A program made the translations under genes and the position numbers. The notes below the pieces were generated by a model. The model searched no databases and was not told the origin of the DNA. It saw only the letters and a program-made list of their open reading frames with translations. A stretch of DNA of 64,000 bases. Source: Candidatus Woesearchaeota archaeon. Lineage in GTDB: Archaea; Nanobdellota; Nanobdellia; UBA10117; ARS21. This document shows, piece by piece, positions 4,010 to 61,708 of this stretch (the stretch's first letter is position 1; each line of letters opens with the position of its first letter). The DNA is taken from assembly GCA_964344705.1 (NCBI GenBank), contig CAYFOG010000001.1, positions 48,984 to 112,983 of the forward strand. The letters run 5' to 3'.

Positions 4010-4029
4010 GAGAAATATCCGAATCTAAT

Positions 4030-4290
4030 GGGCTAGACAGGTCGGGTAAGCGCGGCTGTTATCTTGTATGCTGAGATGTCGAAGCTCAAAGGGCGGCATG
4101 GATTGTATGCTTAGTCCCTGGCGTGTGACGTCGAAGCGTTGCCTCCTCTGGCGATTAAAGATGAGAACCTGGTCAGGCGGGGAACCGAGCAGCCATAATT
4201 ATGTTTATTTGTGCTTTGGAGTAGCGGCGTGGAGTTGTTCGTCAGTAAGGCTTTGTATTTTTGAAATGTCCACCTTTGAGCGTGCCCTTT
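4030..4290 (+). ncRNA. ffs: Signal recognition particle RNA (7S/SRP RNA)
   Basis: GC-rich island in an AT-rich genome with no ORF. The 5' end GGGCUAGACAGGUCGGG resembles an archaeal SRP RNA 5' end. The helix 8 motif GGUCAGG-CGG GGAA CCG-AGCAGCC (GNRA tetraloop flanked by conserved internal-loop nucleotides) lies at about 4170-4196. A 3'-proximal GCCC can pair with the 5' GGGC, followed by a U-rich tract. Ends are approximate. Confidence 0.8.
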
Positions 4291-4385
4291 ATATTCTGAA
4301 CTAAGATAAATATTATAATACTGTGATGCGTTTTTAAAATATGAGTTACAAAATTGGAAGCGGATCAATTTTTCCATATATTCAA

Positions 4386-36146: not shown

Positions 36147-36193
36147 ACGTTTTTGAACAAAAACTATATATTAAAAGCTTGTTAGTGTTTATC

Positions 36194-37354
36194 ATGTCTA
36201 TAGGCCGAAAAGGGAAGTCGGAAGTAAGCCCTACGGGTGCCGTAGTTTTGCTAGTTTTGCTCGCAGGATTTTTGCTATTTATCCTATCTCTTCCTCAAGG
36301 GGATCGAGATGATTTACTGAATCAATTAGAATCTGTTACTGTAGAAGTTCTTTTCGAAGAAGTTCCAGGAGACGTTCAGTCGGAAACAGGTTCTAGTAGC
36401 ACAACGCGCTATGACCTCACAAATTTCAAATTAGATTCAGAAATGAGTTCAAGAGATTCAGTATTAGATAGCAGTTTAGAACTATCTTCGACAGTTTTTA
36501 ATGATGATGCTGCAACTTATTCTTTTGTGCCAGTTTGGAATTCAAATACCATTGGAATGAGTTTTAATGCATTTGTTCAGAATTATGCAGGCAACGGAAA
36601 AATTGCTGTTTTGCTAAATGGAGCTCAAATATATTCGGGAACTCCTGTTGTTGGGAATGTGCTTAAAGTTCCACTTCCAGTTTCAGGAATGTTTCAAGGA
36701 ACTAATACTTTGGAAATAGTACTAGATAAACAAGGTGCTAATATTTTCAGTTCTACGAAAATTGGATTAACTGAAGTTCTGCTGAGAACGGACTCTACAG
36801 GGAAAGATTTGATGAGCACCTTTAGTTTTGAAGTTGAACGTGGAGAAATAGTTTCAGGAACTTATACCGCAATTGTTAGAAAATCTGGTGCAGCAGTTCC
36901 ACTTAAAATTGAGTTGAATGAAGAGAATATTTATTCTGAAGTTCCGCTATCAACCATATTAACTGTTCCAATTTCGGCTGGTTTGTTTAGAGTAGGAGAT
37001 AATTTACTATCATTCAGCATTGGTGAAGGAGTGTCCTACGAAATTCTTTATTCAGATTTGATTGTTAAAACTCGTGCTATTGAAGATGCCAGAGAGTATT
37101 TCTTTAGAATTGATAGAGATCAGGCTAGACGAATAATTAATGGCCGAGCAGACTGTCTTCTTGAGATTTCCAAAGACAGCGGAGCGTCTGATGAAGTTGT
37201 TGTTGATTTGAATGGATTTGTTAGCACGCACTCCGTTCGCTCTGGAGAAGTTTCGTTTGAGGTTTGCGACAGACTGGTTTATGGAGGGAATACAATTTCA
37301 TTTGCTTCTGATGAAGAGTTAAGTCTCAGTTCGGCAAGCTTGACTTTGAGTTAA
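36194..37354 (+). CDS. Hypothetical N-terminally membrane-anchored extracellular protein (first gene of a 4-gene surface operon)
   Basis: N-terminus MSIGRKGKSEVSPTGAVVLLVLLAGFLLFIL (basic residues then a hydrophobic anchor), S/T-rich extracellular part. The track start at 36179 is a TTG. TATA-like AAACTATATATTAAAAG lies about 20 nt upstream of the ATG (leaderless). Confidence 0.5.
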   Translation: MSIGRKGKSEVSPTGAVVLLVLLAGFLLFILSLPQGDRDDLLNQLESVTVEVLFEEVPGDVQSETGSSSTTRYDLTNFKLDSEMSSRDSVLDSSLELSSTVFNDDAATYSFVPVWNSNTIGMSFNAFVQNYAGNGKIAVLLNGAQIYSGTPVVGNVLKVPLPVSGMFQGTNTLEIVLDKQGANIFSSTKIGLTEVLLRTDSTGKDLMSTFSFEVERGEIVSGTYTAIVRKSGAAVPLKIELNEENIYSEVPLSTILTVPISAGLFRVGDNLLSFSIGEGVSYEILYSDLIVKTRAIEDAREYFFRIDRDQARRIINGRADCLLEISKDSGASDEVVVDLNGFVSTHSVRSGEVSFEVCDRLVYGGNTISFASDEELSLSSASLTLS

Positions 37355-37355
37355 G

Positions 37356-39269
37356 ATGGCAGATAATTCTGGTACAACAACCAATAAAGAGAAATGGATT
37401 GAGATTGGGAGTGCGCCGAAGGCTATTTTCAAAGCAGGAATATATGTATTAGTTATTTTCTTCTTTGCGGTTTTAGGTTATAATACTGGAGCCCCATTAA
37501 TCTGGTTTACTTATGTAGCAAACTTTTTTTGGGATATATTTAATTTGATTGCAAGAACAATTGGTGTTCCTGGAATTTCTCCTTTTTTTCTTGACTTTGC
37601 CTATGTTGCGGTAAAGAATGGAACGGGTTTTATTTTGAATGGTCTGTTTGGTTGGTGGCTCGTTCAAAATTTTTATCAAGGCACAAATAAAGTGGCCGGT
37701 GCTAAAAAATTAACAAGTAGCCTGTTCAATTTGGTCATAATTTTTCCATTAATTTGGATTTTTCTGAGTTTAATTATTACAACAGTTTACACAGGTTATG
37801 TTCCTTTTACAGACACAACAATGAGTCCATCACTTTGTGATTTTCAAAATTCAGCTCAACAAGCTGTTGGCTTGAGTCCGGTGTCTTGTGATATTTCTTC
37901 AATAACTGCGTCTATTGAGAGACAAGAAGAAGAAGCAGAATTTACAGCGACGACGGGAACGGGAATTTTAGGAAGGCTGTTTTCTCCAGTTATAGAGTCG
38001 ACGGGCGTTGGAAAAGTATTCAAATCTCGAGATGTGACGGATGAGAATGTTATTAATGCAGACGCAGGTTCAACTCTAACTGATTTGCGTGCTCCGAAAT
38101 TAAGTTATACTGCAAATGATAGAGTTGCAGAAGATATTAAGATATTAGCAAATATTGAGGCCAAGAATTTGTTCTTAAATCAACCAGGTAGTTCCAAGAT
38201 TGAAGTCAAGATTGAGCCAAGCATTTCAGATGCTCAATGTAGTAGTTGTTCAGGATTTAGCTGTTTGGCTGAAGAAGTTAATCTGCCGTTCTATGCTTTT
38301 GATCCTCTAGAAGATAATTCTATTGAATTTAATGCGGAAAATATTGAAGGTTGGTGTGATGAAGATGAGCAGGGCGGAAAGTGGACTTGCGGAATTAGTG
38401 GAATTTCTGAAGAAGATAGAATTGCTCCAAACACTTTCAATTTAGGAAGCGGATTCCACCAAGAGATTACTTGCATACATCCTGGACTTTCCTTGAGCGA
38501 AGAAGTGTTTGTTGATGGAGATGATGTAAAATATGATGGTCTTGGTAAACCGTTCTATGTTGATGTTGATTTCTCATATGATGGAACCGCCGCAGCAAAC
38601 AAACAATTGTTTGTGATTGACAAGAATGTTGCTCGTCAGGAAGAAGACCCGCTAACGGCACTGAGCTTACAAGATTACATAATTTCCAATTCTTATAATG
38701 ATGGAAGAGTAACTTTGGGAATTGGAACTGACACTTTGTATGAGTTTGTTACTCCAACTTATGATGAAGATTTCTCTTCAGATGTACTTGAACTTGCGTT
38801 AAGTTTCAAAGTAAATAGATATCCCGGTGGATATAAAGCAGAAGTCAACAAAGTTACTTTATGGGTCCAAGTTTTGGATGAATCTGTGGGATTCGTTTGC
38901 GGAAATGAAGGATTACCGAAGAAAGTTGATGGAAAATGGCAAATTGATAATCCTTGCGAAGTCGGCGAGCGAAGCGGAAACTTCCATTATGAAGGAACTG
39001 ATGAAACTGAAAGCTATCACAAGTTTGTTATGAATGCAGAGAATGCAACTGAGCTTGGTGCCAAGACGGAGTTGAATGTTGGGCAGTTTGCAAATTATGA
39101 TATTGATATGTTTATTCCTTCAGAAGTGCTGGCTGGAGCCAGTTATCAAGGTATTTTAATAGAGGCCGAGGTTGATTACACTTACACTACTCGAGACGAT
39201 ATATTAGTTAGAGTGACGCACGATGAATTTATTTCAGACGGAGCATCAGACATTGAACAGAACATATAA
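37356..39269 (+). CDS. Hypothetical polytopic membrane protein (about 4 N-terminal TM helices) with a large Cys-rich extracellular domain
   Basis: 637 aa. Multiple Cys clusters (CSSCSGFSC, WCDEDEQGGKWTCGISG, VCGNEGLP...NPCEVG). The start is 1 nt after the previous stop. Confidence 0.5.
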   Translation: MADNSGTTTNKEKWIEIGSAPKAIFKAGIYVLVIFFFAVLGYNTGAPLIWFTYVANFFWDIFNLIARTIGVPGISPFFLDFAYVAVKNGTGFILNGLFGWWLVQNFYQGTNKVAGAKKLTSSLFNLVIIFPLIWIFLSLIITTVYTGYVPFTDTTMSPSLCDFQNSAQQAVGLSPVSCDISSITASIERQEEEAEFTATTGTGILGRLFSPVIESTGVGKVFKSRDVTDENVINADAGSTLTDLRAPKLSYTANDRVAEDIKILANIEAKNLFLNQPGSSKIEVKIEPSISDAQCSSCSGFSCLAEEVNLPFYAFDPLEDNSIEFNAENIEGWCDEDEQGGKWTCGISGISEEDRIAPNTFNLGSGFHQEITCIHPGLSLSEEVFVDGDDVKYDGLGKPFYVDVDFSYDGTAAANKQLFVIDKNVARQEEDPLTALSLQDYIISNSYNDGRVTLGIGTDTLYEFVTPTYDEDFSSDVLELALSFKVNRYPGGYKAEVNKVTLWVQVLDESVGFVCGNEGLPKKVDGKWQIDNPCEVGERSGNFHYEGTDETESYHKFVMNAENATELGAKTELNVGQFANYDIDMFIPSEVLAGASYQGILIEAEVDYTYTTRDDILVRVTHDEFISDGASDIEQNI

Positions 39270-39293
39270 AAATGAGGGAGGGCTTCATAGATT

Positions 39294-40274
39294 ATGAAGA
39301 AACTTCATGTAATCATGCTTATTCTAGTAGTATTTCTGAGTGGATGTACTGCTGATGAGTCTATTGAGGTTCCAGTAGCTTCTAATTATGTTGGATTGGT
39401 TACAAGCGTTTATGCAGATTCTTTACCAAGTTCATTATATGAAGGAGATGCAATTTATTTGCAGTTACAGGTTGAAAATCAAGGAGATCATGATGTTGCT
39501 ACAAGTGAGTATTATCTGAACATAAAAGGAATTAATCCTGGAGCTTTTGAGGGTTTGGATGAGACCGATCTAACCAAAACTTCTAGCACGAATTTAGCGT
39601 CATTAGGTGCTTTTGGTAATGACACAATTGTTCGAGGTCAAGAAATATTTACTCTTGGTGAATCATTTACTTATTGTAATGATATTGATAATGACTTACC
39701 TTTGAATCTTCATGCTAAATCTTGTTATGATTACGGAACAACTTCAGAAATATCTGCGTGCTTTATTGAATCAACCGCAAGTATTGATGGAGAAATTTGT
39801 ACGGTTTCAGAATTTAAGCCAGTAACAAACAGTATTGCGCCGATAGTGATTACTGAAATTGCAGAGAGCGTTGCAGGAGCATCAGATGTTCGATTTAGAG
39901 TAAAAGTTGAGAACCTTGGAGACGGAACAGTATTTGACAAATATGCTTTGGGAACTGAGACAGATACTATTGTTGGTTGCGATAATTTGGTTCGAGGAAC
40001 AAGCAACCTGGTGTATATTGAGAAAATAACTTTGGATGGAATACCTATGAATTTGAGATATGAAGGAGGTGTTGAAACTACTTCAGATGGAAGAAACAGA
40101 TTTAGACTTGATTCAACGGGCGCGGGAAGATTCTCTTTTGTGACTGGAACAACAGGTCTTGAATTTGTTGGTAATGTTGAGATTGAGTTAAGTTATGGTT
40201 ACACTGAGACAGACGTCTTTAGCTCAACAATCAAAGCACTTCCAGACTTTAGCCCGACGTGTAGTGTTGCCTAA
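39294..40274 (+). CDS. Hypothetical lipoprotein (lipobox LSGC), paralog of the next gene
   Basis: Signal peptide plus the lipobox VFLSGC. Conserved Cys pattern shared with the 40277 protein. SD GGAGGG upstream. Confidence 0.55.
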   Translation: MKKLHVIMLILVVFLSGCTADESIEVPVASNYVGLVTSVYADSLPSSLYEGDAIYLQLQVENQGDHDVATSEYYLNIKGINPGAFEGLDETDLTKTSSTNLASLGAFGNDTIVRGQEIFTLGESFTYCNDIDNDLPLNLHAKSCYDYGTTSEISACFIESTASIDGEICTVSEFKPVTNSIAPIVITEIAESVAGASDVRFRVKVENLGDGTVFDKYALGTETDTIVGCDNLVRGTSNLVYIEKITLDGIPMNLRYEGGVETTSDGRNRFRLDSTGAGRFSFVTGTTGLEFVGNVEIELSYGYTETDVFSSTIKALPDFSPTCSVA

Positions 40275-40276
40275 AA

Positions 40277-41263
40277 ATGAACATTCGAAAAGCAATTATT
40301 GTGGTTTTGTTAATATTTGTTAGCGGATGCGTTCATGGAGCGCAAACTACTTCTAGCGGAGATATTGGAAGCGGACTGATTGGCACAAATAACGGAATCA
40401 TTTTTGAAATGTCAGAAATTCCACCAGCGATCAGTTCAGGTCAAGCATTTGGTTTAGAAGTTTCAGCGACAAATGCTGGTTCATATTCTGTAAATCCAGG
40501 AGACGTCAGAGTTTCATTAAGCAATTCAAAATCCTTCAATTTTTTATTGAATGAAGATTTTCAGCAAGTGATAGTTGGGGAAAACGGTTTAACTAATAAT
40601 AATGTTTTGCTTAAGTCTTTGGACGCAGATGTTCTTGGAGATTCAGCAATTTTCTTGTTTGATGATTTGTCTTACAAAACTAAACCTACTCAAGATATTC
40701 AAGTTCCGCTTACAATTGATACTTGTTATTATTATTCCTCTGTTGCGTCCGTAAATATTTGTGTTGCAAAAGATACGTCAAGCGAAATTTGCAGTTCAAA
40801 CGAAGCTAAGTCTGTTGTAAATCACGGAGCTCCAATAAAGGTTTCAGGATTTGAACAAATAAGTAGTTTGGGCAACAAAGAAGTAATTACATCAAATATT
40901 CGGATCGATGTTGATGCTGTTGGAGATGGCAAATTTGAATCTTATTCCACTCCAAAGCCAACATTGGATTGTACTGCTCCAGCAAGCGATATTATTCTTA
41001 ACTCAGTAAGATTGAAATCTATTCAAGTTGGAAGTCAAGCAATAATTGAAGGAGATGATATTGACAGCGTTTGCGAAGTTTCTCAAGATGGCGGAATTAT
41101 TAATTTGGATGCTGATGGAAAAGGTTCAATCGTTTGTAATGGTGTTAGACTTTATGGACAATATACAGAATCAATTGGTGATTTTGAAGAAAGAATGGTA
41201 ATTACTTTGGATTATTTGAATTCAGACAGCATTACTGGAAATTTGAAGGTTCTATCAAATTAG
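40277..41263 (+). CDS. Hypothetical lipoprotein (lipobox VSGC), paralog of the preceding gene
   Basis: Signal peptide plus the lipobox IFVSGC. Shared C-x(8-10)-C-x9-C region and similar length (328 vs 326 aa). Confidence 0.55.
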   Translation: MNIRKAIIVVLLIFVSGCVHGAQTTSSGDIGSGLIGTNNGIIFEMSEIPPAISSGQAFGLEVSATNAGSYSVNPGDVRVSLSNSKSFNFLLNEDFQQVIVGENGLTNNNVLLKSLDADVLGDSAIFLFDDLSYKTKPTQDIQVPLTIDTCYYYSSVASVNICVAKDTSSEICSSNEAKSVVNHGAPIKVSGFEQISSLGNKEVITSNIRIDVDAVGDGKFESYSTPKPTLDCTAPASDIILNSVRLKSIQVGSQAIIEGDDIDSVCEVSQDGGIINLDADGKGSIVCNGVRLYGQYTESIGDFEERMVITLDYLNSDSITGNLKVLSN

Positions 41264-53088: not shown

Positions 53089-55212
53089 ATGGTAAACATG
53101 AAAAAAATGATATCAGTTGCCCTTATGGTGCTGATTGGACTAACTTCTTTGTCAGTAGCTTTTGCTGCGACAAGTACTAATGGCGACTTTACTGCTGTTG
53201 AAGATACAAATGCATTAACTATTGCTCACGGTCAATCTGTGAGCGGAACTATAACTCTAACTAATAATATTGGTACGGGTGCTGCTATGATTTATGATCT
53301 TAGTCTAACGGGACTACCTGCTTGGATGACAGTTACTTTTTATGAGAGCGGAAGTCTAATTACTCAGACAAGTTCAGTTGCTGATGGAGCATCTTTAACA
53401 ATTACTTATACTGCAAGTGTTACAGCAAATACTGCTGCAACTACAACACCTCAAGCATTCAACATTGTGGCTAGTGAAAATGGAGCAGCTACAGCAAACA
53501 CTGCTACAATCGCAATGACTGCTGAGGTTCCAAGCGATCCTTCACGAGTTATCACTCAAGATACAGTTGTATCAACTGTTGCTCGAGAAAGCTCAGTAGA
53601 AATTACTGTTGAAGTTGATAACACAGGAAATGAAAACGTTGTTGTTTCTCAAACTCTCGGAAGTTTGGCAAACGCAGCAACTGATAACACTTATTTGGAT
53701 ATTGGAGCTTTGACTTTGAATTGGAATGATGGAAGAACTCTTTCAACCACTGGAGCAACTGTAGCTCCTGAAACTGGTGGATCAAATACAATTATTCCAG
53801 GAAGCTCTCAAAATTTCGTAATTACTATACCTACTGTAGCAACAGATAGATATGGAGTGTACACCGGAACTTTGAGTCTTATGGATAATTCAAATCCAGC
53901 AATTTCAAAAGATACATCTGCTTTGACAATTAATCTTGTTGATGTAAACAACGAAGCAGGATTAAAGATTAATGATGGTCCGAAGGATGGCGAATTCAAT
54001 GACGTATCTGCGGATGATTCAAGAACTTATCCTGGAGACAATATTGAAATAATCGATGTAACAATTGATAACGAAGTTGGTAAAGATTTAGAAAATGTAT
54101 TCGTTACAATTTCTGTTTACAGTCAAGTCGATGGAGATAAAATAATTAATGAATTCGAATCAGATTATTCAGATATTGATGACAATAGAGATGATCAATT
54201 TGATTACGCATTCCAATTACCTTTTGATATTATTGAAGGAACATATGTAATTGAATATGTTGTAGAGGCTGAAGATGTAGATGGAAATTTATCAACTGCG
54301 ATGGCTTATGACACATTTACAGTTGAACAAGATAGTGATCACTTGGCTGTAGAATCAATTACAATTGGAGAATACTGTGCGGGTGAAACTGCAGAATTTG
54401 AAGTAAAGATTGCAAATATCGGAACAACACGAATGGATGATACTGATGATATTCAAGTTAAAATGACAATTGGAAATTTCAATTTTGATGAAATAATTAG
54501 ATGGACTGAGGACTTCAGGTCCGGAGATTCAGAATTATTTACATTTAATGTAGATATTCCAACAGACGCAACAAGTCCAAACCTTATAGAAGTTGCTGTA
54601 TTCCATGATCGGGATACAGATTCCGGAGATGACGGTGCAACAAGCGCTCAAACATATACTTTGTCAACAGAGAATTGTGCTGAAGCTGAAGGTGCTGACG
54701 TACATGGAATAATTACTGGAACATCTGTTGCAGATGGAGCGGTTGGAACTCCGGCACGATATGATCTGACAATCATGAACACTGGTTCAAGTCTGGCAGA
54801 ATATGATTTGGAAGTTTCAGGAATATCTGGATGGGGAACATCACAAGTTGAACCTGCAGGAACAATTACTGTTGGCGCAGGAGAAACAGCAACTGTGTAT
54901 GTTTACTTAACTCCAAACGATAACGCGGCTGAAAGCAATGCTGCGGTAATAACTTTGAAATCTGGAGCAAACGTAATTCAGACAAAAACAGTAACAATGA
55001 ATGTTGCTGGAGCTTCAATTTCAACATATACAAATGCTTTACTCGGTTCAAGTATTGTTGACTTGGGCGCAGACCAACAAGGTTTGATTACTCTGTTGTC
55101 TCTGGCCACAATCTTGTTTGTAACTGTGGGAACACTTTACACAGCTACACAACCAACAAGAAGTTCAGCAAAGAAAAAGAAGAAGCGAGCAACAAAAAAG
55201 GAGCGTAGATAA
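53089..55212 (+). CDS. Large secreted surface protein with CARDB/DUF11-like repeats and a C-terminal TM anchor plus K-rich tail
   Basis: Signal peptide MKKMISVALMVLIGLTSLSVAFA, T/D/E-rich beta-repeat regions, C-terminus LLSLATILFVTVGTLYTA-TQPTRSSAKKKKKRATKKERR. Confidence 0.55.
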   Translation: MVNMKKMISVALMVLIGLTSLSVAFAATSTNGDFTAVEDTNALTIAHGQSVSGTITLTNNIGTGAAMIYDLSLTGLPAWMTVTFYESGSLITQTSSVADGASLTITYTASVTANTAATTTPQAFNIVASENGAATANTATIAMTAEVPSDPSRVITQDTVVSTVARESSVEITVEVDNTGNENVVVSQTLGSLANAATDNTYLDIGALTLNWNDGRTLSTTGATVAPETGGSNTIIPGSSQNFVITIPTVATDRYGVYTGTLSLMDNSNPAISKDTSALTINLVDVNNEAGLKINDGPKDGEFNDVSADDSRTYPGDNIEIIDVTIDNEVGKDLENVFVTISVYSQVDGDKIINEFESDYSDIDDNRDDQFDYAFQLPFDIIEGTYVIEYVVEAEDVDGNLSTAMAYDTFTVEQDSDHLAVESITIGEYCAGETAEFEVKIANIGTTRMDDTDDIQVKMTIGNFNFDEIIRWTEDFRSGDSELFTFNVDIPTDATSPNLIEVAVFHDRDTDSGDDGATSAQTYTLSTENCAEAEGADVHGIITGTSVADGAVGTPARYDLTIMNTGSSLAEYDLEVSGISGWGTSQVEPAGTITVGAGETATVYVYLTPNDNAAESNAAVITLKSGANVIQTKTVTMNVAGASISTYTNALLGSSIVDLGADQQGLITLLSLATILFVTVGTLYTATQPTRSSAKKKKKRATKKERR

Positions 55213-55230
55213 ACTCGCTCCCTCATACTC

Positions 55231-55255
55231 TCACCTGAGGTACCTCAGGAGGTGA
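55231..55255 (+). promoter_or_regulatory. Intergenic hairpin (palindrome CCTGAGGTACCTCAGG with flanks) overlapping the SD-like GGAGGTGA of the next gene
   Basis: Perfect 7-bp stem CCUGAGG/CCUCAGG with a 2-nt loop. GGAGGUGA lies 8 nt before the ATG at 55264. Confidence 0.35.
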
Positions 55256-55263
55256 AAAACAAA

Positions 55264-56841
55264 ATGAACAAAATAACAAAAAATTTGATTAGTTTGCTTT
55301 TGGTAACATTAGCATTACTAGCACCAGTAAGTGCAGCAACTCCTGCATTGGAAATTAGTCATACTAACTCTAATGGAGACAGTGCAACAGCACGACTTGT
55401 AACCTCTAATCTGGTGATGACACAAGGAGGAGTTCTAAGCATCCCTGTTGATGTATTGAATACTCTTTCAACTGACTACACATTAGAAGTTATTGTAACT
55501 GGAGACGGAATTGACAACACAAAGTCAGAAACATTGAACATTGAAGCAAATCTAGGTTCTATTTCAGAAACTAGAACTGCAGAATTTGTTCTAGACAGTG
55601 TTCTGACAGAAGGACAACACAGTATAAATGTACAATTGAATCTTCACGATATGACTCAACAACAAGCTACTGGGTCACTAGCAATGGATTTAACTGTTAA
55701 CCCTGAAATTCCAGCACTTCCAATAAACTATGAACCAAACTTGGTTACAGCAAAATTGGATAAAAGTGACTTGAATCCTGGTGATAACGTAGAAATTGAA
55801 ATTGATCTTGAAAATGGTTTAACTGATTACGATGATGTAACTGTTGAAGCTAAAATTGTTGATTCAAACAATGAAAGAGTTGGAGATAAAGTTGAAGTAG
55901 ATGTCGGTCACTTAGAAGCTGAATTCGACAAAACTGTAACTATGTCTATAGCACTTCCATCTGATTTGGACACTGGAGCATACGCAGTTGAAATTATTGT
56001 AACTGGAGACGTTGAAACTAGTTCAACTGTTCAATTAATGAACACACAACTAGACGCAGCAACTCTAAACTTCGATGTTGAAAGACACGAACACAGTTTG
56101 ACTATTGAATCAGTTACACATAATCCAAATGCACAAGCAGGTGACACATATAGTGTTGCAGTTAGTGTTATGAATAATGGATTAAACTATGAAGAAGATG
56201 TTGTAATTACTGTTTCTATGGCAGGAACAACTCAAACTTCAGCAACTTTCGCAATTGATCAAGACGAAGAAATTGTTCAATACTTTAACTTAGCTATCCC
56301 AAGTGATGCACAAAGTTCAGAAGTATTGGCTGTGTTAGTAAATGGAGAAGATTCTTCAGCAAGATACACTGCTGAAGTAAATGTTGGCGCAAGCGCAACT
56401 GTAAGCTCTGCTGGATTATCAGCAACTGTTGATTCAGTTTCCAAGACTGTTGGAAGCGAAGGAACAGCATATATGATAACTCTAGTAAACAACGATGATT
56501 TAACAAGAACTGTCGGTGTTTCCGTTGGCGGAGTACAAGGTTGGGCAGATGCTACAATTACACCTGCAACTCTAACATTGACTCCAGGGTCAAGTGGAAT
56601 TGCAAGCGTATACATTAACCCATCAGATAATGCTGAAGGGACAAACGCTTTCACTGTTTATGTAAGTGAAGGAAACCAAGTTGTTTCAAGCGTAGGTCTA
56701 ACAGCTACTGTTGATGATGCAGTTGATGTAATGAATTGGGCTTTAGCAGCAATTGCTTTGGTTCTAGCAGCATTCGCATACAACCAACGATCTCGTCCAG
56801 CAACAAAAGGACGAAGAAGATCAAAGAGAGTCTACTACTAA
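55264..56841 (+). CDS. Secreted surface protein with CARDB/DUF11-like repeats and a C-terminal TM anchor plus basic tail
   Basis: Signal peptide LLLVTLALLAPVSAA, C-terminus WALAAIALVLAAFAYNQRSRPATKGRRRSKRVYY. The track start at 55252 is a GTG; the ATG at 55264 has an SD. Confidence 0.55.
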   Translation: MNKITKNLISLLLVTLALLAPVSAATPALEISHTNSNGDSATARLVTSNLVMTQGGVLSIPVDVLNTLSTDYTLEVIVTGDGIDNTKSETLNIEANLGSISETRTAEFVLDSVLTEGQHSINVQLNLHDMTQQQATGSLAMDLTVNPEIPALPINYEPNLVTAKLDKSDLNPGDNVEIEIDLENGLTDYDDVTVEAKIVDSNNERVGDKVEVDVGHLEAEFDKTVTMSIALPSDLDTGAYAVEIIVTGDVETSSTVQLMNTQLDAATLNFDVERHEHSLTIESVTHNPNAQAGDTYSVAVSVMNNGLNYEEDVVITVSMAGTTQTSATFAIDQDEEIVQYFNLAIPSDAQSSEVLAVLVNGEDSSARYTAEVNVGASATVSSAGLSATVDSVSKTVGSEGTAYMITLVNNDDLTRTVGVSVGGVQGWADATITPATLTLTPGSSGIASVYINPSDNAEGTNAFTVYVSEGNQVVSSVGLTATVDDAVDVMNWALAAIALVLAAFAYNQRSRPATKGRRRSKRVYY

Positions 56842-56955
56842 GTAGACTTTCTTCTTTTCTTTTTTCTTATCTTTAAAATATGCTATTAAATAGCTAAATC
56901 TTTTTATATAAAGTTCCGACGGTAGAGCAAGGTAGAACTACCTTAGGATGATAAT

Positions 56956-59490
56956 ATGATGAAGAAACTTTTCATGACTCTTGCAGTTTTGGTGCTAGTT
57001 ATGCAACCAGCTTTTGCGTTTACGCTTTCTTCAGCTGATCAAAGTGTTTCAACATGTCCGAGTAATACTGGATTGTTTGTTGCGCAAGTTGGAAATACTG
57101 GAAGTTCTACAGAGATTTACACACTAGGATTATCGGGCGCAGCAAGCGGTTGGGCAAGCGTTGCTCCAGCAGGATTTGCTCTTGGTCCGGGACAATCTCA
57201 AGACGTTTATGTTTATGTTACTCCTTCTTCAAATGCACAAGTCGGCAATTATCCTTTAACTTTAACTGTTTCTTCTGGCACGTCAAGCCAGAATTTGGCT
57301 TTTGATTATACTGTGGAGTCTTGTCATGATATTTCACTTACGGCTCAAACCAATGAGCTATCCGTTTGTTCAGGAAATTCAGCAAGCTATGTTTTAAATT
57401 TGAGAAATGACGGTCAGTGGGAGGATACATTTGACTTAGCAGTCTCTGGAGAAGCAGGAATTTGGTCGAGCTTGAGCCGGAATTCTGTTTCACTTGCGCC
57501 AGGAGAGTCCGAACAATTAAGTGTAGTTGTTACACCGCCAAGAAACGAGGTTGGAGTTTATTCGCTAGCAGTATCTGCCACATCTCAGAGTGCTGGAGTC
57601 GTGGTTGCTCAATCATTAACAATCGCCTCAAGATCATGCTATGATTTTGACATGGTTGCCTCAGAAAACTATGTCTCATTTTGTGATAATTCTGAAGCGA
57701 AAGTTCCAGTAACAATTACTAATTCAGGTTCAGAAAACGATGTTTACAGTTTAGATTTGAATGGGAATAGTTGGTCTGTTCTTGATAGAGATTCAATTAG
57801 CGTTCCTGCGGGAGCCAGTGCAGCATTCAATTTAATATTAACTCCAGGATTTGGAGATGTTGGAACAAGTGTTTTCAATATTGAAGCTGAAGCCACTACT
57901 GGAGACACATCAGATTCAGTAACAATTAATGCAAATGTCTTAACATGTAGAGATACAAGTTTGGATATTGAGAGTTCAAGTATTGAGCTTTGTCCTGGAA
58001 CAAGTGAAACTGTTAATGTAATGCTGACAAATGCGGGACAGTTCCAAGAGAGTTATTCTTTGACGGTTGATGGTCCAAGTTGGGTTAATTTGGATAGAAA
58101 CTCAGTAATTCTTGCTTCAGGCGAATCAGCAACAATGCAATTATCTTTATCACCGCAAACGAATGCGGGTTTGATTTATGAAGATGTTACTGTCAGTGCA
58201 AAATCTCAAAATGTAGGAAATACTCAAGACTCTGATTCAATTAGAGTAAATGTTCCAGTAAGAGCGGCTTGTTATAATGTTGACGTCTCGACTGAACACA
58301 GGGCTGTCACCGTTGCTTATGGTGAAGGAGCGTTAGTTCCAATTGTTGTTCAAAATATAGGTTCTCAAAGCAATACTTATGAATTTACTGTGTCTGGAGA
58401 TGGCGCACAATTTGCGCAGATTAATCCTGGAGCAATTGAAGTTGAAGGCAATACTGTTGAAGAAGCTTACTTATATATTTCAGTTCCACGAGATGCAGCA
58501 AAAACTTCGTATACGATTGCAGTGGCTGCGCAATCTGGAGATTTAAGAGATTCAACCGCAGTTATTCTGACCGTTTCAGATGAAGAACCTAAATTTATTG
58601 GAGCCGTACCAGAAAGTTTGAAAGATGCTGGTTCTGGCGCAGTTTCATCAGTTTGGAGTGGCCTAGTTAGTTTATATTCCGTCACCTCTAATTTTGTTAT
58701 AAATTATTGGTATATATTTCCAGCACTATTGGCACTGTTGGTTGTGCTTTATGGACTCGGACGAGTTCGTGATTCTGAATCTTGGATGAAAGATTTGGAA
58801 CTTCTTGAGCAAGAGTTAGAACTTTCTGAAAAGAAAGAGATACCTAAACCTAAGAAGACACAACCATCATTGCTAAAGCGTTTCTCAGATTGGTTAATGG
58901 AAGAAGATGAAGTTAAAGTTGTAACTAAATCTAAACCTCCAGTGAAATCTGAAACAAAAGTGAAAAAAGAACCGGGAAGGTTCCAACGTTTCTCAGATTG
59001 GTTAATGGAAGAAAACGTACCAAAGGCTAAGCCGAAAGCCAAACCTACCCCTAGACCTAAACCTAAGAAGACACAACCATCACTACTAAAACGATTTTCT
59101 GACTGGTTAATGGAAGATGATGAAGTAGTTCAAGTAACTCGTAAACCTGGGAAATCATTATTAGAACAAGCAAAAGAATTTCTTTTTGAAGAAGTTCCAG
59201 TTACTGAAGAGAAAGTTAGAAAACCTAAACCAAAGAAAAAGGAAAAAGGACTTTGGCAAAAATTCATTGATTGGTTAGAGGAAGAAGATGAATCTAAACC
59301 AAAGCCCAAATCACGTTCAAGATCGACGCCAAAACCAAAAACCAAGAAAGAACCAGGACTATTACAAAAATTCTCAGATTGGTTAATGGAAGAAGATGAC
59401 AAACCTAAGACTAAACCAAAACCTAAACCAAAGAAAAAGGAAAAAGGTATTTGGCAAAAATTCATTGATTGGTTAGAAGAGGAAGATTAA
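56956..59490 (+). CDS. Large surface protein: signal peptide, five ~105-aa Cys-bounded CARDB/DUF11-like repeats, a single TM helix, and a ~250-aa cytoplasmic tail with six K-F-S/I-D-W-L-M/E-E-E-D-E motif repeats
   Basis: Repeats start CPSN.., CHDISL.., CYDFDM.., CRDTSL.., CYNVDV... TM segment YIFPALLALLVVLYGLG. Tail motifs LLKRFSDWLMEEDE, FQRFSDWLMEEN, LLKRFSDWLMEDDE, LWQKFIDWLEEEDE, LLQKFSDWLMEEDD, IWQKFIDWLEEED, separated by K/P-rich linkers. Confidence 0.55.
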   Translation: MMKKLFMTLAVLVLVMQPAFAFTLSSADQSVSTCPSNTGLFVAQVGNTGSSTEIYTLGLSGAASGWASVAPAGFALGPGQSQDVYVYVTPSSNAQVGNYPLTLTVSSGTSSQNLAFDYTVESCHDISLTAQTNELSVCSGNSASYVLNLRNDGQWEDTFDLAVSGEAGIWSSLSRNSVSLAPGESEQLSVVVTPPRNEVGVYSLAVSATSQSAGVVVAQSLTIASRSCYDFDMVASENYVSFCDNSEAKVPVTITNSGSENDVYSLDLNGNSWSVLDRDSISVPAGASAAFNLILTPGFGDVGTSVFNIEAEATTGDTSDSVTINANVLTCRDTSLDIESSSIELCPGTSETVNVMLTNAGQFQESYSLTVDGPSWVNLDRNSVILASGESATMQLSLSPQTNAGLIYEDVTVSAKSQNVGNTQDSDSIRVNVPVRAACYNVDVSTEHRAVTVAYGEGALVPIVVQNIGSQSNTYEFTVSGDGAQFAQINPGAIEVEGNTVEEAYLYISVPRDAAKTSYTIAVAAQSGDLRDSTAVILTVSDEEPKFIGAVPESLKDAGSGAVSSVWSGLVSLYSVTSNFVINYWYIFPALLALLVVLYGLGRVRDSESWMKDLELLEQELELSEKKEIPKPKKTQPSLLKRFSDWLMEEDEVKVVTKSKPPVKSETKVKKEPGRFQRFSDWLMEENVPKAKPKAKPTPRPKPKKTQPSLLKRFSDWLMEDDEVVQVTRKPGKSLLEQAKEFLFEEVPVTEEKVRKPKPKKKEKGLWQKFIDWLEEEDESKPKPKSRSRSTPKPKTKKEPGLLQKFSDWLMEEDDKPKTKPKPKPKKKEKGIWQKFIDWLEEED
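58850..59490 (+). repeat. Imperfect tandem DNA repeats (~60-70 nt units) encoding the FSDWLMEEDE-motif tail
   Basis: Near-identical DNA stretches, e.g. aagacacaaccatca(t/c)t(g/a)ctaaa(g/a)cg(t/a)tt(c/t)tc(a/t)ga(t/c)tggttaatggaaga at 58856 and 59066, and gaaaaagg(a/t)(c/a)tttggcaaaaattcattgattggttaga at 59244 and 59443. Confidence 0.6.
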
Positions 59491-60218
59491 TGCCTTTTTT
59501 GGATGACATTTTGGACTATAAGTATTCTTTATCTCAGTGGCATATCAACAATGAAGATTTTAATAATATTGAATTTGCGCCACTGTATTTCAGTCTAGAT
59601 AAAGATTCCATGACTCAATTTGCAAAAGAAGGAAGAGGATATTCAACAGAAGATGGTCGGGCCCGCGCCAGAAGAAATAAAGATGACCGATTAATCATCC
59701 GAAGACCTTTTGATGGAATAATAAAACGACTTAGGAGAATTAATGAGTTGGAATATGCGGTTTTGGGTGATAGAATTATTTGGAAGGAAAGAATTCCTCC
59801 AGAGAAGGCAATGTTTAATTTTCGTTCTACTGAGCATGAATATGTTTTGGACATGGATATTCGTTCCGATGCAAACTTCAATAATTTATTGAGTGCGCTT
59901 TCATCAACAGAACCAAATCCACAATTATTAGAAGCAACGCTTCAAAAAAGAAAAAGATTTGCTAAAGAAATTATTTCAGAAAATGAAATTTTTATGATTG
60001 ATGTAACAAACAAATATTGGAGTTCAAAATCAAATAAACATTCTTGGTTTGAAATTTTCTATATGCTTCCAAGAGACTCTGAAAATTGCGATTTAGCTTT
60101 GAGAAGAGTAATTGAAGCAAATCTTGATGGTCCATCACACAAACGTCGAGCAAAATATCAGGAAAGACGTGCGCTTCAAATGTTGGCCGAGTATGAAGCA
60201 GAACATTCTAAATCTTAA
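59490..60218 (+). CDS. Hypothetical protein (242 aa); its start overlaps the stop of the preceding surface-protein gene (TAATG)
   Basis: ORF 59469-60218; ATG at 59490; R/K-rich; no family recognised. Confidence 0.35.
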   Translation: MPFLDDILDYKYSLSQWHINNEDFNNIEFAPLYFSLDKDSMTQFAKEGRGYSTEDGRARARRNKDDRLIIRRPFDGIIKRLRRINELEYAVLGDRIIWKERIPPEKAMFNFRSTEHEYVLDMDIRSDANFNNLLSALSSTEPNPQLLEATLQKRKRFAKEIISENEIFMIDVTNKYWSSKSNKHSWFEIFYMLPRDSENCDLALRRVIEANLDGPSHKRRAKYQERRALQMLAEYEAEHSKS

Positions 60219-61116
60219 TTTCCATAAAATCTTTAGCCATAGTTATTTTTCCCTTGAATGCGGATTTGGCTTCTTCTTTCAGTTCTTTTGTTGAGCGATA
60301 TCTCTGCGAAAAGTGAGTCAGAACTAAGTGTTTTACTTTTGCTTGTTTGCCGAGCCGTGCAGCTTCTTTAGTTGTCATGTGTCCGCCTTTTTCTGCTGAA
60401 CTTTTTACTTTATTTGAAAATGTTGCTTCGCAGACAAAGACATCTGAATCTTTTACAAGTTCAACAATTGGAGCATAGTAAGCAGTATCAATAGTTATTG
60501 CAAATTTCTTTCCGTGACGAGCATAGGTTGCGAGTTTAGCGCTTATTTTCTTACCGTCAATAGTAACATCTTTTCCTCTTTGCAATCGTTTTAATCCTGG
60601 ATGCTGTGTAGGAATTCCTTTGGATTTCAGATAGTCAGTATTAACTCTGAGTCGAGTTTTTTCTTGGAATGAATATCCGAAACAAGGAATTGGATGCTTA
60701 AGCTTTAGTGCATTAATTTTGTATTTGTCCGTTTCACAAATTGTTTTGAGTTTTATGTTTGAAAGTTCTTTGACAATTAATCTGTAACTAAGTTTTTCGT
60801 GCTCGTAAGCTTTCATAATTGCTGAGATTTTTGCACCAGTTCCTTTTGGTCCGTAAATTTCCAAAGGATTTTTTCTTTGATTCATAGCCATACTCATTAA
60901 CAAACCTGGAAGTCCTAGAACGTGATCTCCGTGCCAGTGAGAAATGAAAATCTTTGTAATTTTTTGCGGGTTTTCTTTTGCAATTCTGATTTGCCTTTGT
61001 GTTCCTTCGCCACAATCAAACAAAAAAGATTCTCCAGCATAGGTAAAAAGTGCCGCAGTCTGATTCCTGTCTTTAGTTGGGAAAGCTGAAGACGTTCCCA
61101 AGATTCTTAGCTTCAT
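60208..61116 (-). CDS. rnz: Ribonuclease Z (tRNA 3' endonuclease)
   Basis: Metallo-beta-lactamase motif HWHGDH, N-terminus MKLRILGTSSAFP, 302 aa. Confidence 0.85.
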   Translation of the reverse strand: MKLRILGTSSAFPTKDRNQTAALFTYAGESFLFDCGEGTQRQIRIAKENPQKITKIFISHWHGDHVLGLPGLLMSMAMNQRKNPLEIYGPKGTGAKISAIMKAYEHEKLSYRLIVKELSNIKLKTICETDKYKINALKLKHPIPCFGYSFQEKTRLRVNTDYLKSKGIPTQHPGLKRLQRGKDVTIDGKKISAKLATYARHGKKFAITIDTAYYAPIVELVKDSDVFVCEATFSNKVKSSAEKGGHMTTKEAARLGKQAKVKHLVLTHFSQRYRSTKELKEEAKSAFKGKITMAKDFMEIKI

Positions 61117-61216
61117 GTTGATACATAATCCTTTTAATGTATAAAAGAATAACTTTTTTACACGAAGACTCTAACTTCTTGAGCAGTAGTTCGGAAGGGG
61201 TACTTCTTGAAAAACA

Positions 61217-61708
61217 ATGGAAAAAGGAACCCTGATTGGAAATAAGGTTGTACTTAGCACGAACTCTTTATTTAATCGCAGTGCTTTTGGGATTTTGAAC
61301 AAGCAAGGTGGAGTTGAATTGAGCTCTGAAGAAGCACTTTATCTTGTAGAGAAGAAAAAAATTGATGTGGAGGTCAGTTTTGATAATCTGCGTCGAAGAT
61401 TTAACCGAAGCAATAAGAATTTTGATGAGAGATATTCTGTATTTCGAGATTTGCGTAATAGAGGATACATTCCTAAGAGCGGTTTGAAGTTTGGATGCGA
61501 CTTTAGAGTTTATGGCAAAGGTTCAAGACCTGGAAAAACTCATGCGAAGTGGTTAGTTTTTGCCACTCGAGAAAATTCTAAATCGTCTTGGAAAGATATG
61601 TCTGGAATGGCACGAGTTGCAAATTCAACTAAGAAGAGTGTTTTGGTGGGAATTGTAGATTCAGAAAACGGCGTTAGTTATTTTGAGGTATCTTGGAGAC
61701 GGCCATGA
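61217..61708 (+). CDS. endA: tRNA-splicing endonuclease catalytic subunit EndA (short, ~163 aa)
   Basis: Catalytic-domain motifs GYIPKSGLKFGCDFRVY and a conserved His/Lys. Confidence 0.8.
   Translation: MEKGTLIGNKVVLSTNSLFNRSAFGILNKQGGVELSSEEALYLVEKKKIDVEVSFDNLRRRFNRSNKNFDERYSVFRDLRNRGYIPKSGLKFGCDFRVYGKGSRPGKTHAKWLVFATRENSKSSWKDMSGMARVANSTKKSVLVGIVDSENGVSYFEVSWRRP

Follow-up and report, generated by a model that had tools for sequence, protein, structure and literature searches.

Genes of the locus

The 64-kb stretch of DNA analysed here as a whole (the window; 64,000 nucleotides (nt) of contig CAYFOG010000001.1) is derived from an uncultivated marine Woesearchaeota/Nanoarchaeota-type DPANN archaeon. 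It contains a cell-envelope gene cluster, a run of four intact consecutive open reading frames (ORFs), P1 to P4, on the forward strand at positions 53089-60218. P1 (53089..55212), P2 (55252..56841) and P3 (56956..59490) encode three predicted surface proteins and P4 (59490..60218) encodes a soluble protein of 242 amino acids (aa). New in this cluster are a conserved array of a short, predicted cytoplasmic motif in P3, which is present in one to eight copies in the P3 family, and a clade-specific juxtamembrane helix of P3 that is coupled to the orphan gene P4. The ORFs of P1 and P3 comprise 707 and 844 aa, in agreement with the initial annotation of this DNA, whereas its value of 526 aa for P2 had to be replaced, as P2 encompasses 529 aa counted from a GTG or 525 aa counted from the ATG at 55264. 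The latter is more likely the start because the sequence AGGTGA lies 8 nt upstream of it, and it is also the start chosen by gene callers. P3 and P4 share one base, i.e., the A of the P3 stop codon TAA is the first base of the P4 ATG, so that the TAATG overlap from which P4 was annotated to begin is real. The P3 and P4 proteins recur identically in contigs of several sequencing runs and assemblies, and P3 was also found in metagenome-assembled genomes at 83-84% identity.

Architecture of P3

P1, P2 and P3 each start with a hydrophobic signal that has an A-x-A-type site, and each contains one and only one hydrophobic segment towards the C-terminus. This layout of signal peptide and C-terminal transmembrane (TM) helix agrees with the secreted, membrane-anchored state of the S-layer class. 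From this layout P3 is classified as a conserved type-I membrane protein, and P1 and P2 likewise as predicted archaeal surface/S-layer-type proteins.

The P3 ectodomain (57019..58590, forward strand, aa 22-545) is composed of five homologous beta-sandwich domains of ~103-108 aa, and an AlphaFold2 (AF2) model based on a 25-sequence alignment contains the five beta-sandwiches with a predicted local distance difference test score of ~90. The cysteines at positions 34, 123, 138, 228, 243, 331, 346 and 439 are invariant in 25/25 sequences and bracket domains 1-4 in pairs, whereas domain 5 has an Ala at the equivalent site. Of the five Cys-bounded repeats of ~105 aa described earlier, all five repeats were thus recovered and four are bounded by Cys. 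The invariance of the cysteines and their positions on the strands of the model suggest the disulfide pairing 34-123, 138-228, 243-331 and 346-439. In Pfam, P3 passes the cut-offs for FixG_C (69.2 bits, three stretches), HYDIN_VesB_CFA65-like_Ig (49.2 bits) and NPCBM_assoc (35.9 bits), labels that are informative at the level of the fold only (E-set-type beta-sandwiches) and have no functional content. The NCBIfam model NF041740 (choice-of-anchor T) was matched with 62.4 bits, below its cut-off of 70. A profile of the P3 family gave zero matches to PDB sequences, and Foldseek with the P3 model returned only generic tandem immunoglobulin (Ig)/ASH arrays such as HYDIN-like proteins, titin and complement C3.

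The TM helix (58693..58764, forward strand, aa ~580-603; Kyte-Doolittle 2.17) is modelled by AF2 as a helix at 584-603, and aa 580-598 are the sole hydrophobic 19-residue window over the threshold in the C-terminal half of P3. Behind it follows a tail of 241-246 aa that contains 61 K/R, 49 D/E and 26 P and runs of the type KPKPKPK. The signal peptide, the single TM helix and the positive-inside rule place this tail in the cytoplasm, which supports the description of P3 as unusual for its long, repetitive, cytoplasmic tail (241 aa). The AF2 model of the tail is disordered except for short helices and a turn at 735-738.

A conserved motif array in the P3 tail

Along the P3 tail, a 12-residue motif of the form Φ-[W/L]-x-[K/R]-F-x-[D/N]-W-L-x-E-[E/D] is present in six copies. 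These are encoded on the forward strand at 58870..58905 (LLKRFSDWLMEE, aa 639-650), 58978..59013 (RFQRFSDWLMEE, aa 675-686), 59083..59118 (LLKRFSDWLMED, aa 710-721), 59251..59286 (LWQKFIDWLEEE, aa 766-777), 59359..59394 (LLQKFSDWLMEE, aa 802-813) and 59449..59484 (IWQKFIDWLEEE, aa 832-843), the last being followed only by D844 and the stop codon; a C-terminal copy is also present in most full-length P3 homologues. A 16-mer form of the motif peptide is KKEKGIWQKFIDWLEEED. AF2 predicts short helices at five of the six copies (639-648, 677-683, 766-775, 802-811 and 832-842 for copies 1, 2, 4, 5 and 6, respectively). Three subtypes of the copies can be told apart at the DNA level, and the 74-nt units of copies 4 and 6 are 93% identical. 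Between copies 3 and 4 lies a central variant element (59152..59202, forward strand, KSLLEQAKEFLFEEVPV, aa 733-749), which includes the modelled turn and is kept in the P4-bearing clade. Chance is not considered to explain the motif, as the 241 aa contain it six times and the rest of the window, translated in all six frames, does not contain it at all; outside the P3 tail a loose form was likewise absent from the six-frame translations of the window and six related loci.

Homologues of P3 were collected by protein search, by a scan of GTDB genomes (12 species) and by a DNA-pattern scan of metagenomes, and many of them are located on metagenome contigs. In all complete homologues the signal peptide is followed by five Ig domains, a TM helix and a tail with one to eight motif copies, at ectodomain identities from 100% down to 34%. 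In distant homologues there is only one copy, which is either C-terminal (GGFWKKIEDFLEEE) or follows the TM helix at a distance of 10-25 residues (KGMWQKFMDWLEEEDE). In 114 motif instances W8 is conserved in 101 (the rest being F), L9 in 113, E11 in 112 and E/D12 in 113. The metagenome DNA-pattern scan gave at least 120 matches, mostly to one unrelated gut-bacterial protein. Among the matches listed, every low-GC match with ectodomain sequence belonged to the P3 family, a few low-GC matches were tail-only fragments, and no match placed the motif on another archaeal architecture. The motif is a hallmark of the P3 family as judged from these sequences, and no description of it was found in the literature.

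Other candidate relatives of the tail were rejected. Three matches in high-GC phage proteins, which would have placed the motif in viruses, are due to chance, and Pfam and NCBIfam gave only sub-threshold chance matches in the tail. A protein search with the tail alone returned four tail fragments and did not recover the parent protein, probably due to compositional filtering. In a comparison of the tail with the PDB the central element (DEVVQVTRKPGKSLLEQAKEFLFEEVPV, window 59152-59202 plus flanks) gave a weak phmmer likeness to the beta-alpha-beta core of ribosomal protein uL23 with E = 0.28, which is non-significant and was dismissed as probable noise.

P4 and the juxtamembrane helix of P3

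P4 is predicted to be soluble, contains no TM helix and has an isoelectric point (pI) of ~7. It is well conserved among 25 homologues (56-84% identity), which share an invariant Arg-rich segment, RARR..D..L.I.RP, and from its distribution it is a clade-restricted orphan. The oligo-T tract right behind the P2 stop codon and a TTTATATA box ~45 nt upstream of the P3 ATG, both read from the sequence of the P2-P3 intergenic region (56842..56955, forward strand), suggest that P3 and P4 probably form a separate transcription unit, the terminator and promoter roles being assigned from general archaeal signals.

Directly behind the TM helix P3 contains a further predicted helix (58780..58824, forward strand, aa 609-623), S-W-M-K-D-L-E-L-L-E-Q-E-L-E-L, of which AF2 models residues 610-621 (WMKDLELLEQEL) as helical. 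The core SW[MI]KDLELL is present in 20 loci, and P4 lies downstream in 20/20; in 16 motif-bearing P3 loci the helix is absent or degenerate, and P4 is found in 0/16. Within the P4-bearing loci the helix remains near-identical although the identity of the ectodomain drops to 41%, and the start/stop overlap of P3 and P4 (TAATG or ATGA) is kept in all 20. Motif copy number does not follow the presence of P4. P4 is not a general partner of the tail motif, as judged from the gene neighbourhoods, because it is absent beside many motif-bearing P3 genes. The correlation of helix and P4 is suggestive, and within the clade a pairing of P3 and P4 via the juxtamembrane helix, not the repeats, is possible.

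In loci without P4, the RNase Z gene follows directly or an unrelated gene occupies the slot. Three such slot genes were tested as hidden P4 homologues (locus L014, 172 aa; L019, 318 aa; L025, 225 aa) and rejected, as hhalign gave probabilities of <1%; one of them encodes an alpha/beta hydrolase. A P2-like and a P3-like gene, followed by the variable slot, the RNase Z gene (reverse strand) and the tRNA-splicing endonuclease gene (forward strand), lie in this order both in the window (56956-61708) and in the loci L013, L014, L015, L019 and L025, and the arrangement extends to Woesearchaeota in which P3 identity is only ~35%. Comparative genomics of the proposed arrangement of three surface-protein genes plus one thus shows that P3 and its neighbours are kept, whereas P4 is confined to one clade.

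A separate observation concerns the surroundings of P4. At its 3' end, P4 shares 11 nt with the convergent RNase Z gene, and the tRNA-splicing endonuclease gene follows (window 59490-61708). The sole distant relative of P4, P0026 (28% identity; locus L152, 959-1558), is flanked by the tRNA ligase gene rtcB on one side and a gene for a rhodopsin on the other, and P3 is absent from its vicinity. The P4 family might thus possibly be linked to tRNA processing, which these two genomic contexts support weakly.

P1 and P2

P1 consists of a signal peptide (aa 1-26), an Ig-like acidic ectodomain, a TM helix (aa ~665-683) and a 24-aa poly-basic tail; P2 consists of a signal peptide, an Ig-like ectodomain, a TM helix (aa ~490-508) and a basic stub ending in K-R/K-V-Y-Y. 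A signal peptide and C-terminal TM helix in each of the three proteins, together with short basic stubs in P1 and P2, had been recognized before and were found again. The pI of P1 is 4.05, and the ectodomains of P1 and P2 are acidic (~4.1). P1 passes the cut-off of 110 bits of the NCBIfam model NF033506, 'putative S-layer protein' (PACE-CTERM-PROT), with 129.7 bits, in line with the earlier proposal of an archaeal surface or S-layer-like type-I anchoring. P2 remains under this cut-off with 96 bits, aligned to the C-terminal two thirds of the model, and P3 does not match it. The P1 alignment covers profile positions 19-599 of 627, so that the last 28 positions, presumably the CTERM sorting/anchor region, lie outside it; a TM helix and a basic tail are present in P1. 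Both P1 and P2 share with this family the succession of signal peptide, Ig-like ectodomain and C-terminal anchor; the family itself is uncharacterised, its 'S-layer' label is a curator's prediction, and no mention of PACE-CTERM was found in the literature. Archaeosortase-type CTERM sorting models, e.g., PGF-CTERM, were not among the NCBIfam matches of P1-P3 at E <= 1.

P1 and P2 are 28% identical across 364 aa, by which P2 is assigned as a shorter paralogue of P1. Their Pfam matches are Ig-like beta-sandwich families only (FixG_C, NPCBM_assoc and DUF7490). For FixG_C (PF11614, cut-off 25.6 bits) P1 passes with 33.9 bits, and P2 lies just under it with 24.9 bits. CARDB (PF07705) was detected only in P2, with 13.7 bits against a gathering threshold of 22.7, and DUF11 was not matched by any of the proteins at E <= 1 in Pfam. 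The previous designation of the modules as CARDB/DUF11-like therefore holds at the level of the fold but not of the family. P1 and P2 are putative S-layer-type proteins.

The cytoplasmic C-terminus K-K-V-Y-Y of P2 (window 56830-56838) is kept in the P2 family, distant Woesearchaeota loci included; V-Y-Y or V-Y-F was confirmed in L007, L009, L010, L011, L013 and L014, with V-Y-F in L014. Even the short stub of P2 thus appears to bear a conserved C-terminal signal, of the hydrophobic-Tyr-X type.

Depletion of N-glycosylation sequons

Archaeal S-layer proteins are usually pictured as heavily N-glycosylated. In the ectodomains of P1-P3, counted over 53167-55068, 55336-56721 and 57019-58680, a single N-x-S/T sequon (x not P) was observed in 1650 residues, where 23.5 were expected; this is N400-L-S of P1, and the P3 ectodomain contains none (7.6 expected). 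Six control patterns occurred at ratios of 0.8-1.3, including [ST]-x-N, D-x-[ST], Q-x-[ST], N-[ST] and N-x-x-[ST], and N-x-[AG] was enriched (1.6 in P1-P3); within P1-P3 the ratios of the controls were 0.9-1.3. The cytoplasmic proteins of the window are mildly low in sequons (61 vs 83). P3-family ectodomains are mostly sequon-free in other lineages too, and in the P1 homologue of locus L007 sequons are not depleted. The presence of multiple sequons, a typical though not obligatory feature of an archaeal S-layer glycoprotein, is thus lacking in P1-P3. This pattern-specific absence departs from the usual S-layer picture and points to selection against N-glycosylation of these proteins, which implies that the selection is tied to an active glycosylation system.

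A comparison by architecture, with no sequence homology claimed, can be made to proteins of Nanobdella, a DPANN ectosymbiont. These resemble P3 in that an N-terminal signal is followed by 4-5 Ig-like folds and a TM helix at the C-terminal end. They differ in having 13-17 predicted sites of N-glycosylation, and a long tail in the cytoplasm has not been described for them, whereas P3 has its 241-aa motif-array tail.

A further group of genes in the window shows a similar depletion (2 sequons vs 14.5 expected; N-x-[AG] at 1.3). At 36179-41263 four consecutive forward-strand genes encode proteins of 391, 637, 326 and 328 aa without a Pfam match, all of which are Cys-rich and have an N-terminal TM/signal segment, and two of which contain a lipobox-like LSGC/VSGC. 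They probably constitute a second cluster of envelope or exported proteins.

Genomic setting

The DNA has a GC content of ~36%. Upstream, the P1-P4 cluster is flanked by the housekeeping genes for LeuRS and tRNA-Arg(TCT), and downstream by the convergent RNase Z, the tRNA-splicing endonuclease (EndA) and a class II aminoacyl-tRNA synthetase (tRNA-synt_2b). At 4026-4291 (forward strand) a scan with Rfam gathering thresholds called a 97-nt 'Bacteria_small_SRP'. This assignment was rejected, as a more sensitive scan revealed a longer Archaea_SRP match of 266 nt (89.1 bits vs a gathering score of 96.5), of which the called element forms the S domain. By this match, it belongs to an ordinary archaeal signal recognition particle RNA, slightly shortened, with ~40 nt missing from one helix.

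Interpretation of the P3 tail

The explanation considered best, although it falls somewhat short of an even chance, is that putative S-layer-type proteins P1 and P2 are accompanied by a transmembrane protein P3 with a multivalent cytoplasmic docking array and by P4 as an add-on. Outside the cell, P3 would expose five tandem Ig-like domains that are apparently disulfide-stapled and unglycosylated; inside, its disordered Lys/Pro-rich 241-aa tail would carry six amphipathic helices with an acidic cap. Each motif copy would act as a short linear motif for docking, folding when it binds a hydrophobic, basic-rimmed groove of a postulated cytoplasmic partner that is conserved order-wide. The tail would act as a multivalent tether by which a surface layer or a host-contact adhesin is coupled to the cell interior. 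P4 would be a clade-specific, translationally coupled add-on, which, if it binds P3 at all, would do so via SWMKDLELL rather than via the repeats. Docking is favoured because W-L-x-E-E is near-invariant across lineages and because the motif helices have a net charge of -1 to -4 and a HeliQuest-type discriminant D of ~0 or lower. Folding on binding would fit because the basic N-flank and the acidic C-flank of the motif oppose the helix dipole.

The logic of such a tail would be similar to that of classical cadherins and other metazoan type-I adhesion receptors, which likewise possess five tandem beta-sandwiches, one TM helix and a disordered cytoplasmic tail and whose tails recruit cytoplasmic adaptors. 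Protocadherin EC1-5 was among the Foldseek matches of the P3 model at rank 36. The comparison is meant as a functional analogy only, as there is no homology, the Ca2+-binding linker motifs of cadherins were not seen in P3 and their catenin-binding sites are unrelated to the tail motif.

A serious rival to docking is in-plane membrane binding, in which the motifs are amphipathic helices as in FtsA, MinD and SepF that stitch the tail to the inner leaflet at up to eight points; P3 would then stabilise or shape the membrane beneath the surface layer or cluster lipids without recruiting any protein. The motif shares with the C-terminal helix of FtsA the register Φ-Φ-x-[K/R]-Φ-x-x-W-[L/F] including the W-[L/F] pair, Lys and Gly likewise precede the helix in FtsA, and the hydrophobic moments are comparable (0.38-0.57 for the motif, 0.61-0.62 for FtsA). 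The metagenome scan also returned a bona fide bacterial FtsA (Pfam FtsA 137 bits; locus L032, 38-1271, reverse strand), which was matched through its C-terminal KKGLWTRFKDWFKEE. The motif is rich in Trp, as interfacial helices often are, its N-flanks are poly-Lys, and in distant homologues the single copy lies ~10-25 residues behind the TM helix, near enough to fold back onto the membrane. Yet D of the motif helices is -0.79 to 0.03, compared with 0.6 to 1.7 for FtsA and MinD, for which E. coli sequences were used. With the Lys flank included, 18-residue windows of copies 1, 4 and 6 reach D = 0.72, 0.44 and 0.45, one of the three exceeding ~0.68. Of the properties of FtsA/MinD-type helices, the motif thus has the amphipathic hydrophobic register but not the neutral-to-positive charge (D > ~0.68). 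Moreover, lipid binding leaves the E-E pair, the best conserved part of the motif, unexplained, L9 is invariant and not swapped freely for other hydrophobics, and P3 is integral in the membrane already. FtsA, a peripheral protein, ends in a single such helix of neutral to basic charge, whereas P3, as an integral membrane protein, carries up to eight copies of a strongly acidic motif in which E-E is invariant. The likeness is one of form, convergent and not homologous. Docking is tentatively ranked above membrane binding, which is regarded as rather unlikely. Several points nevertheless weigh against the docking account: its partner is postulated, the hydrophobic register of the motif is that of the FtsA membrane-targeting helix, a bacterial FtsA was matched by the same DNA pattern, and the poly-Lys flanks could bind anionic lipids. 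Motif copies of the same protein are paralogues that have in part been homogenised, as the 93% DNA pair illustrates, so that the 114 are not independent, although the same motif core recurs across lineages. Other motif-bearing architectures are possible, as the P3-only result holds among the matches listed. The co-occurrence of helix and P4 is limited to one clade and is phylogenetically confounded, and the S-layer role of P1 and P2 is based solely on the name of a hidden Markov model, whose match to P1 ends at 599/627.

The other readings are less probable still. That P4 is unrelated to P3 and is a small RNA- or tRNA-processing-associated protein in the variable slot before RNase Z/EndA is unlikely; it draws on the 11-nt overlap with RNase Z and the neighbouring EndA, on the only distant homologue adjoining RtcB and on the invariant Arg-rich segment, but the perfect co-occurrence of P4 with the juxtamembrane helix and the conserved start/stop overlap speak against it, and its tRNA-processing part is based on two genomic contexts. 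The initial annotation had instead seen the repeat tail as a docking site for P4, with both forming a receptor/partner pair. The overlap conserved in 20/20 P4-bearing loci, the apparently own transcription unit and the soluble, well-conserved nature of P4 are in favour of this idea. It became improbable, as the motif is conserved in P3 homologues without P4, the presence of P4 is not tracked by motif copy number, the distant homologue P0026 has no nearby P3 and gene overlaps are frequent in this compact genome (4/10 same-strand neighbour pairs). It is more doubtful yet that the Lys/Pro linkers are the functional part, either as an extended histone-H1-like or TonB-like polycation holding nucleic acid (nucleoid or ribosomes) at the membrane or as a spacer, with the helices being secondary. 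The abundance of K/R and P, the KPKPKPK runs and the disorder of the tail in the AF2 model would suit this reading, but the linkers are poorly conserved in sequence and length while the motif is conserved, distant homologues have one motif and hardly any Lys/Pro linker, and the 49 D/E reduce the tail to a modest net charge. Hardly any weight is given to an artefact, in which a single pseudogenised S-layer gene gave rise to the ORFs as its pieces or the tail lies outside the cell, the two outcomes that had been named as refuting the annotation. A Ser-rich, moderately hydrophobic segment at aa 563-574, before the TM helix and helical in the AF2 model, could be cited for an altered topology. However, every ORF contains a signal peptide, a TM helix and a stop codon, and across clades each is kept as an intact gene of its own. 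Identical proteins come from several sequencing runs and assemblies, and in the C-terminal half a single window of 19 residues lies above the hydrophobicity threshold; an external tail with 61 K/R would breach the positive-inside rule, and the topology evidence places it inside.

Implications for DPANN archaea

DPANN archaea live attached to other cells, and to our knowledge almost nothing is known about the link between their envelope and the cell interior. P3, a surface protein kept in many lineages of the Woesearchaeota type, has an obligatory motif in its predicted cytoplasmic part whose copy number varies, and it provides a testable handle on this link. If the tail is only an array of membrane-hugging helices, it would be a modest structural curiosity. 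A broader extension of the docking account, speculative and doubtful at present, is that P3 is the prototype of an order-wide transmembrane coupler of Woesearchaeales-type DPANN archaea, in which an unglycosylated five-Ig ectodomain engages the S-layer or host surface, one to eight W-L-x-E-E helices recruit a conserved intracellular machinery, e.g., for division, the cytoskeleton or host contact, and P4 is an adaptor clamped on the juxtamembrane helix in one clade. If true, this would constitute a prokaryotic cadherin-like outside-in linkage via a new short linear motif.

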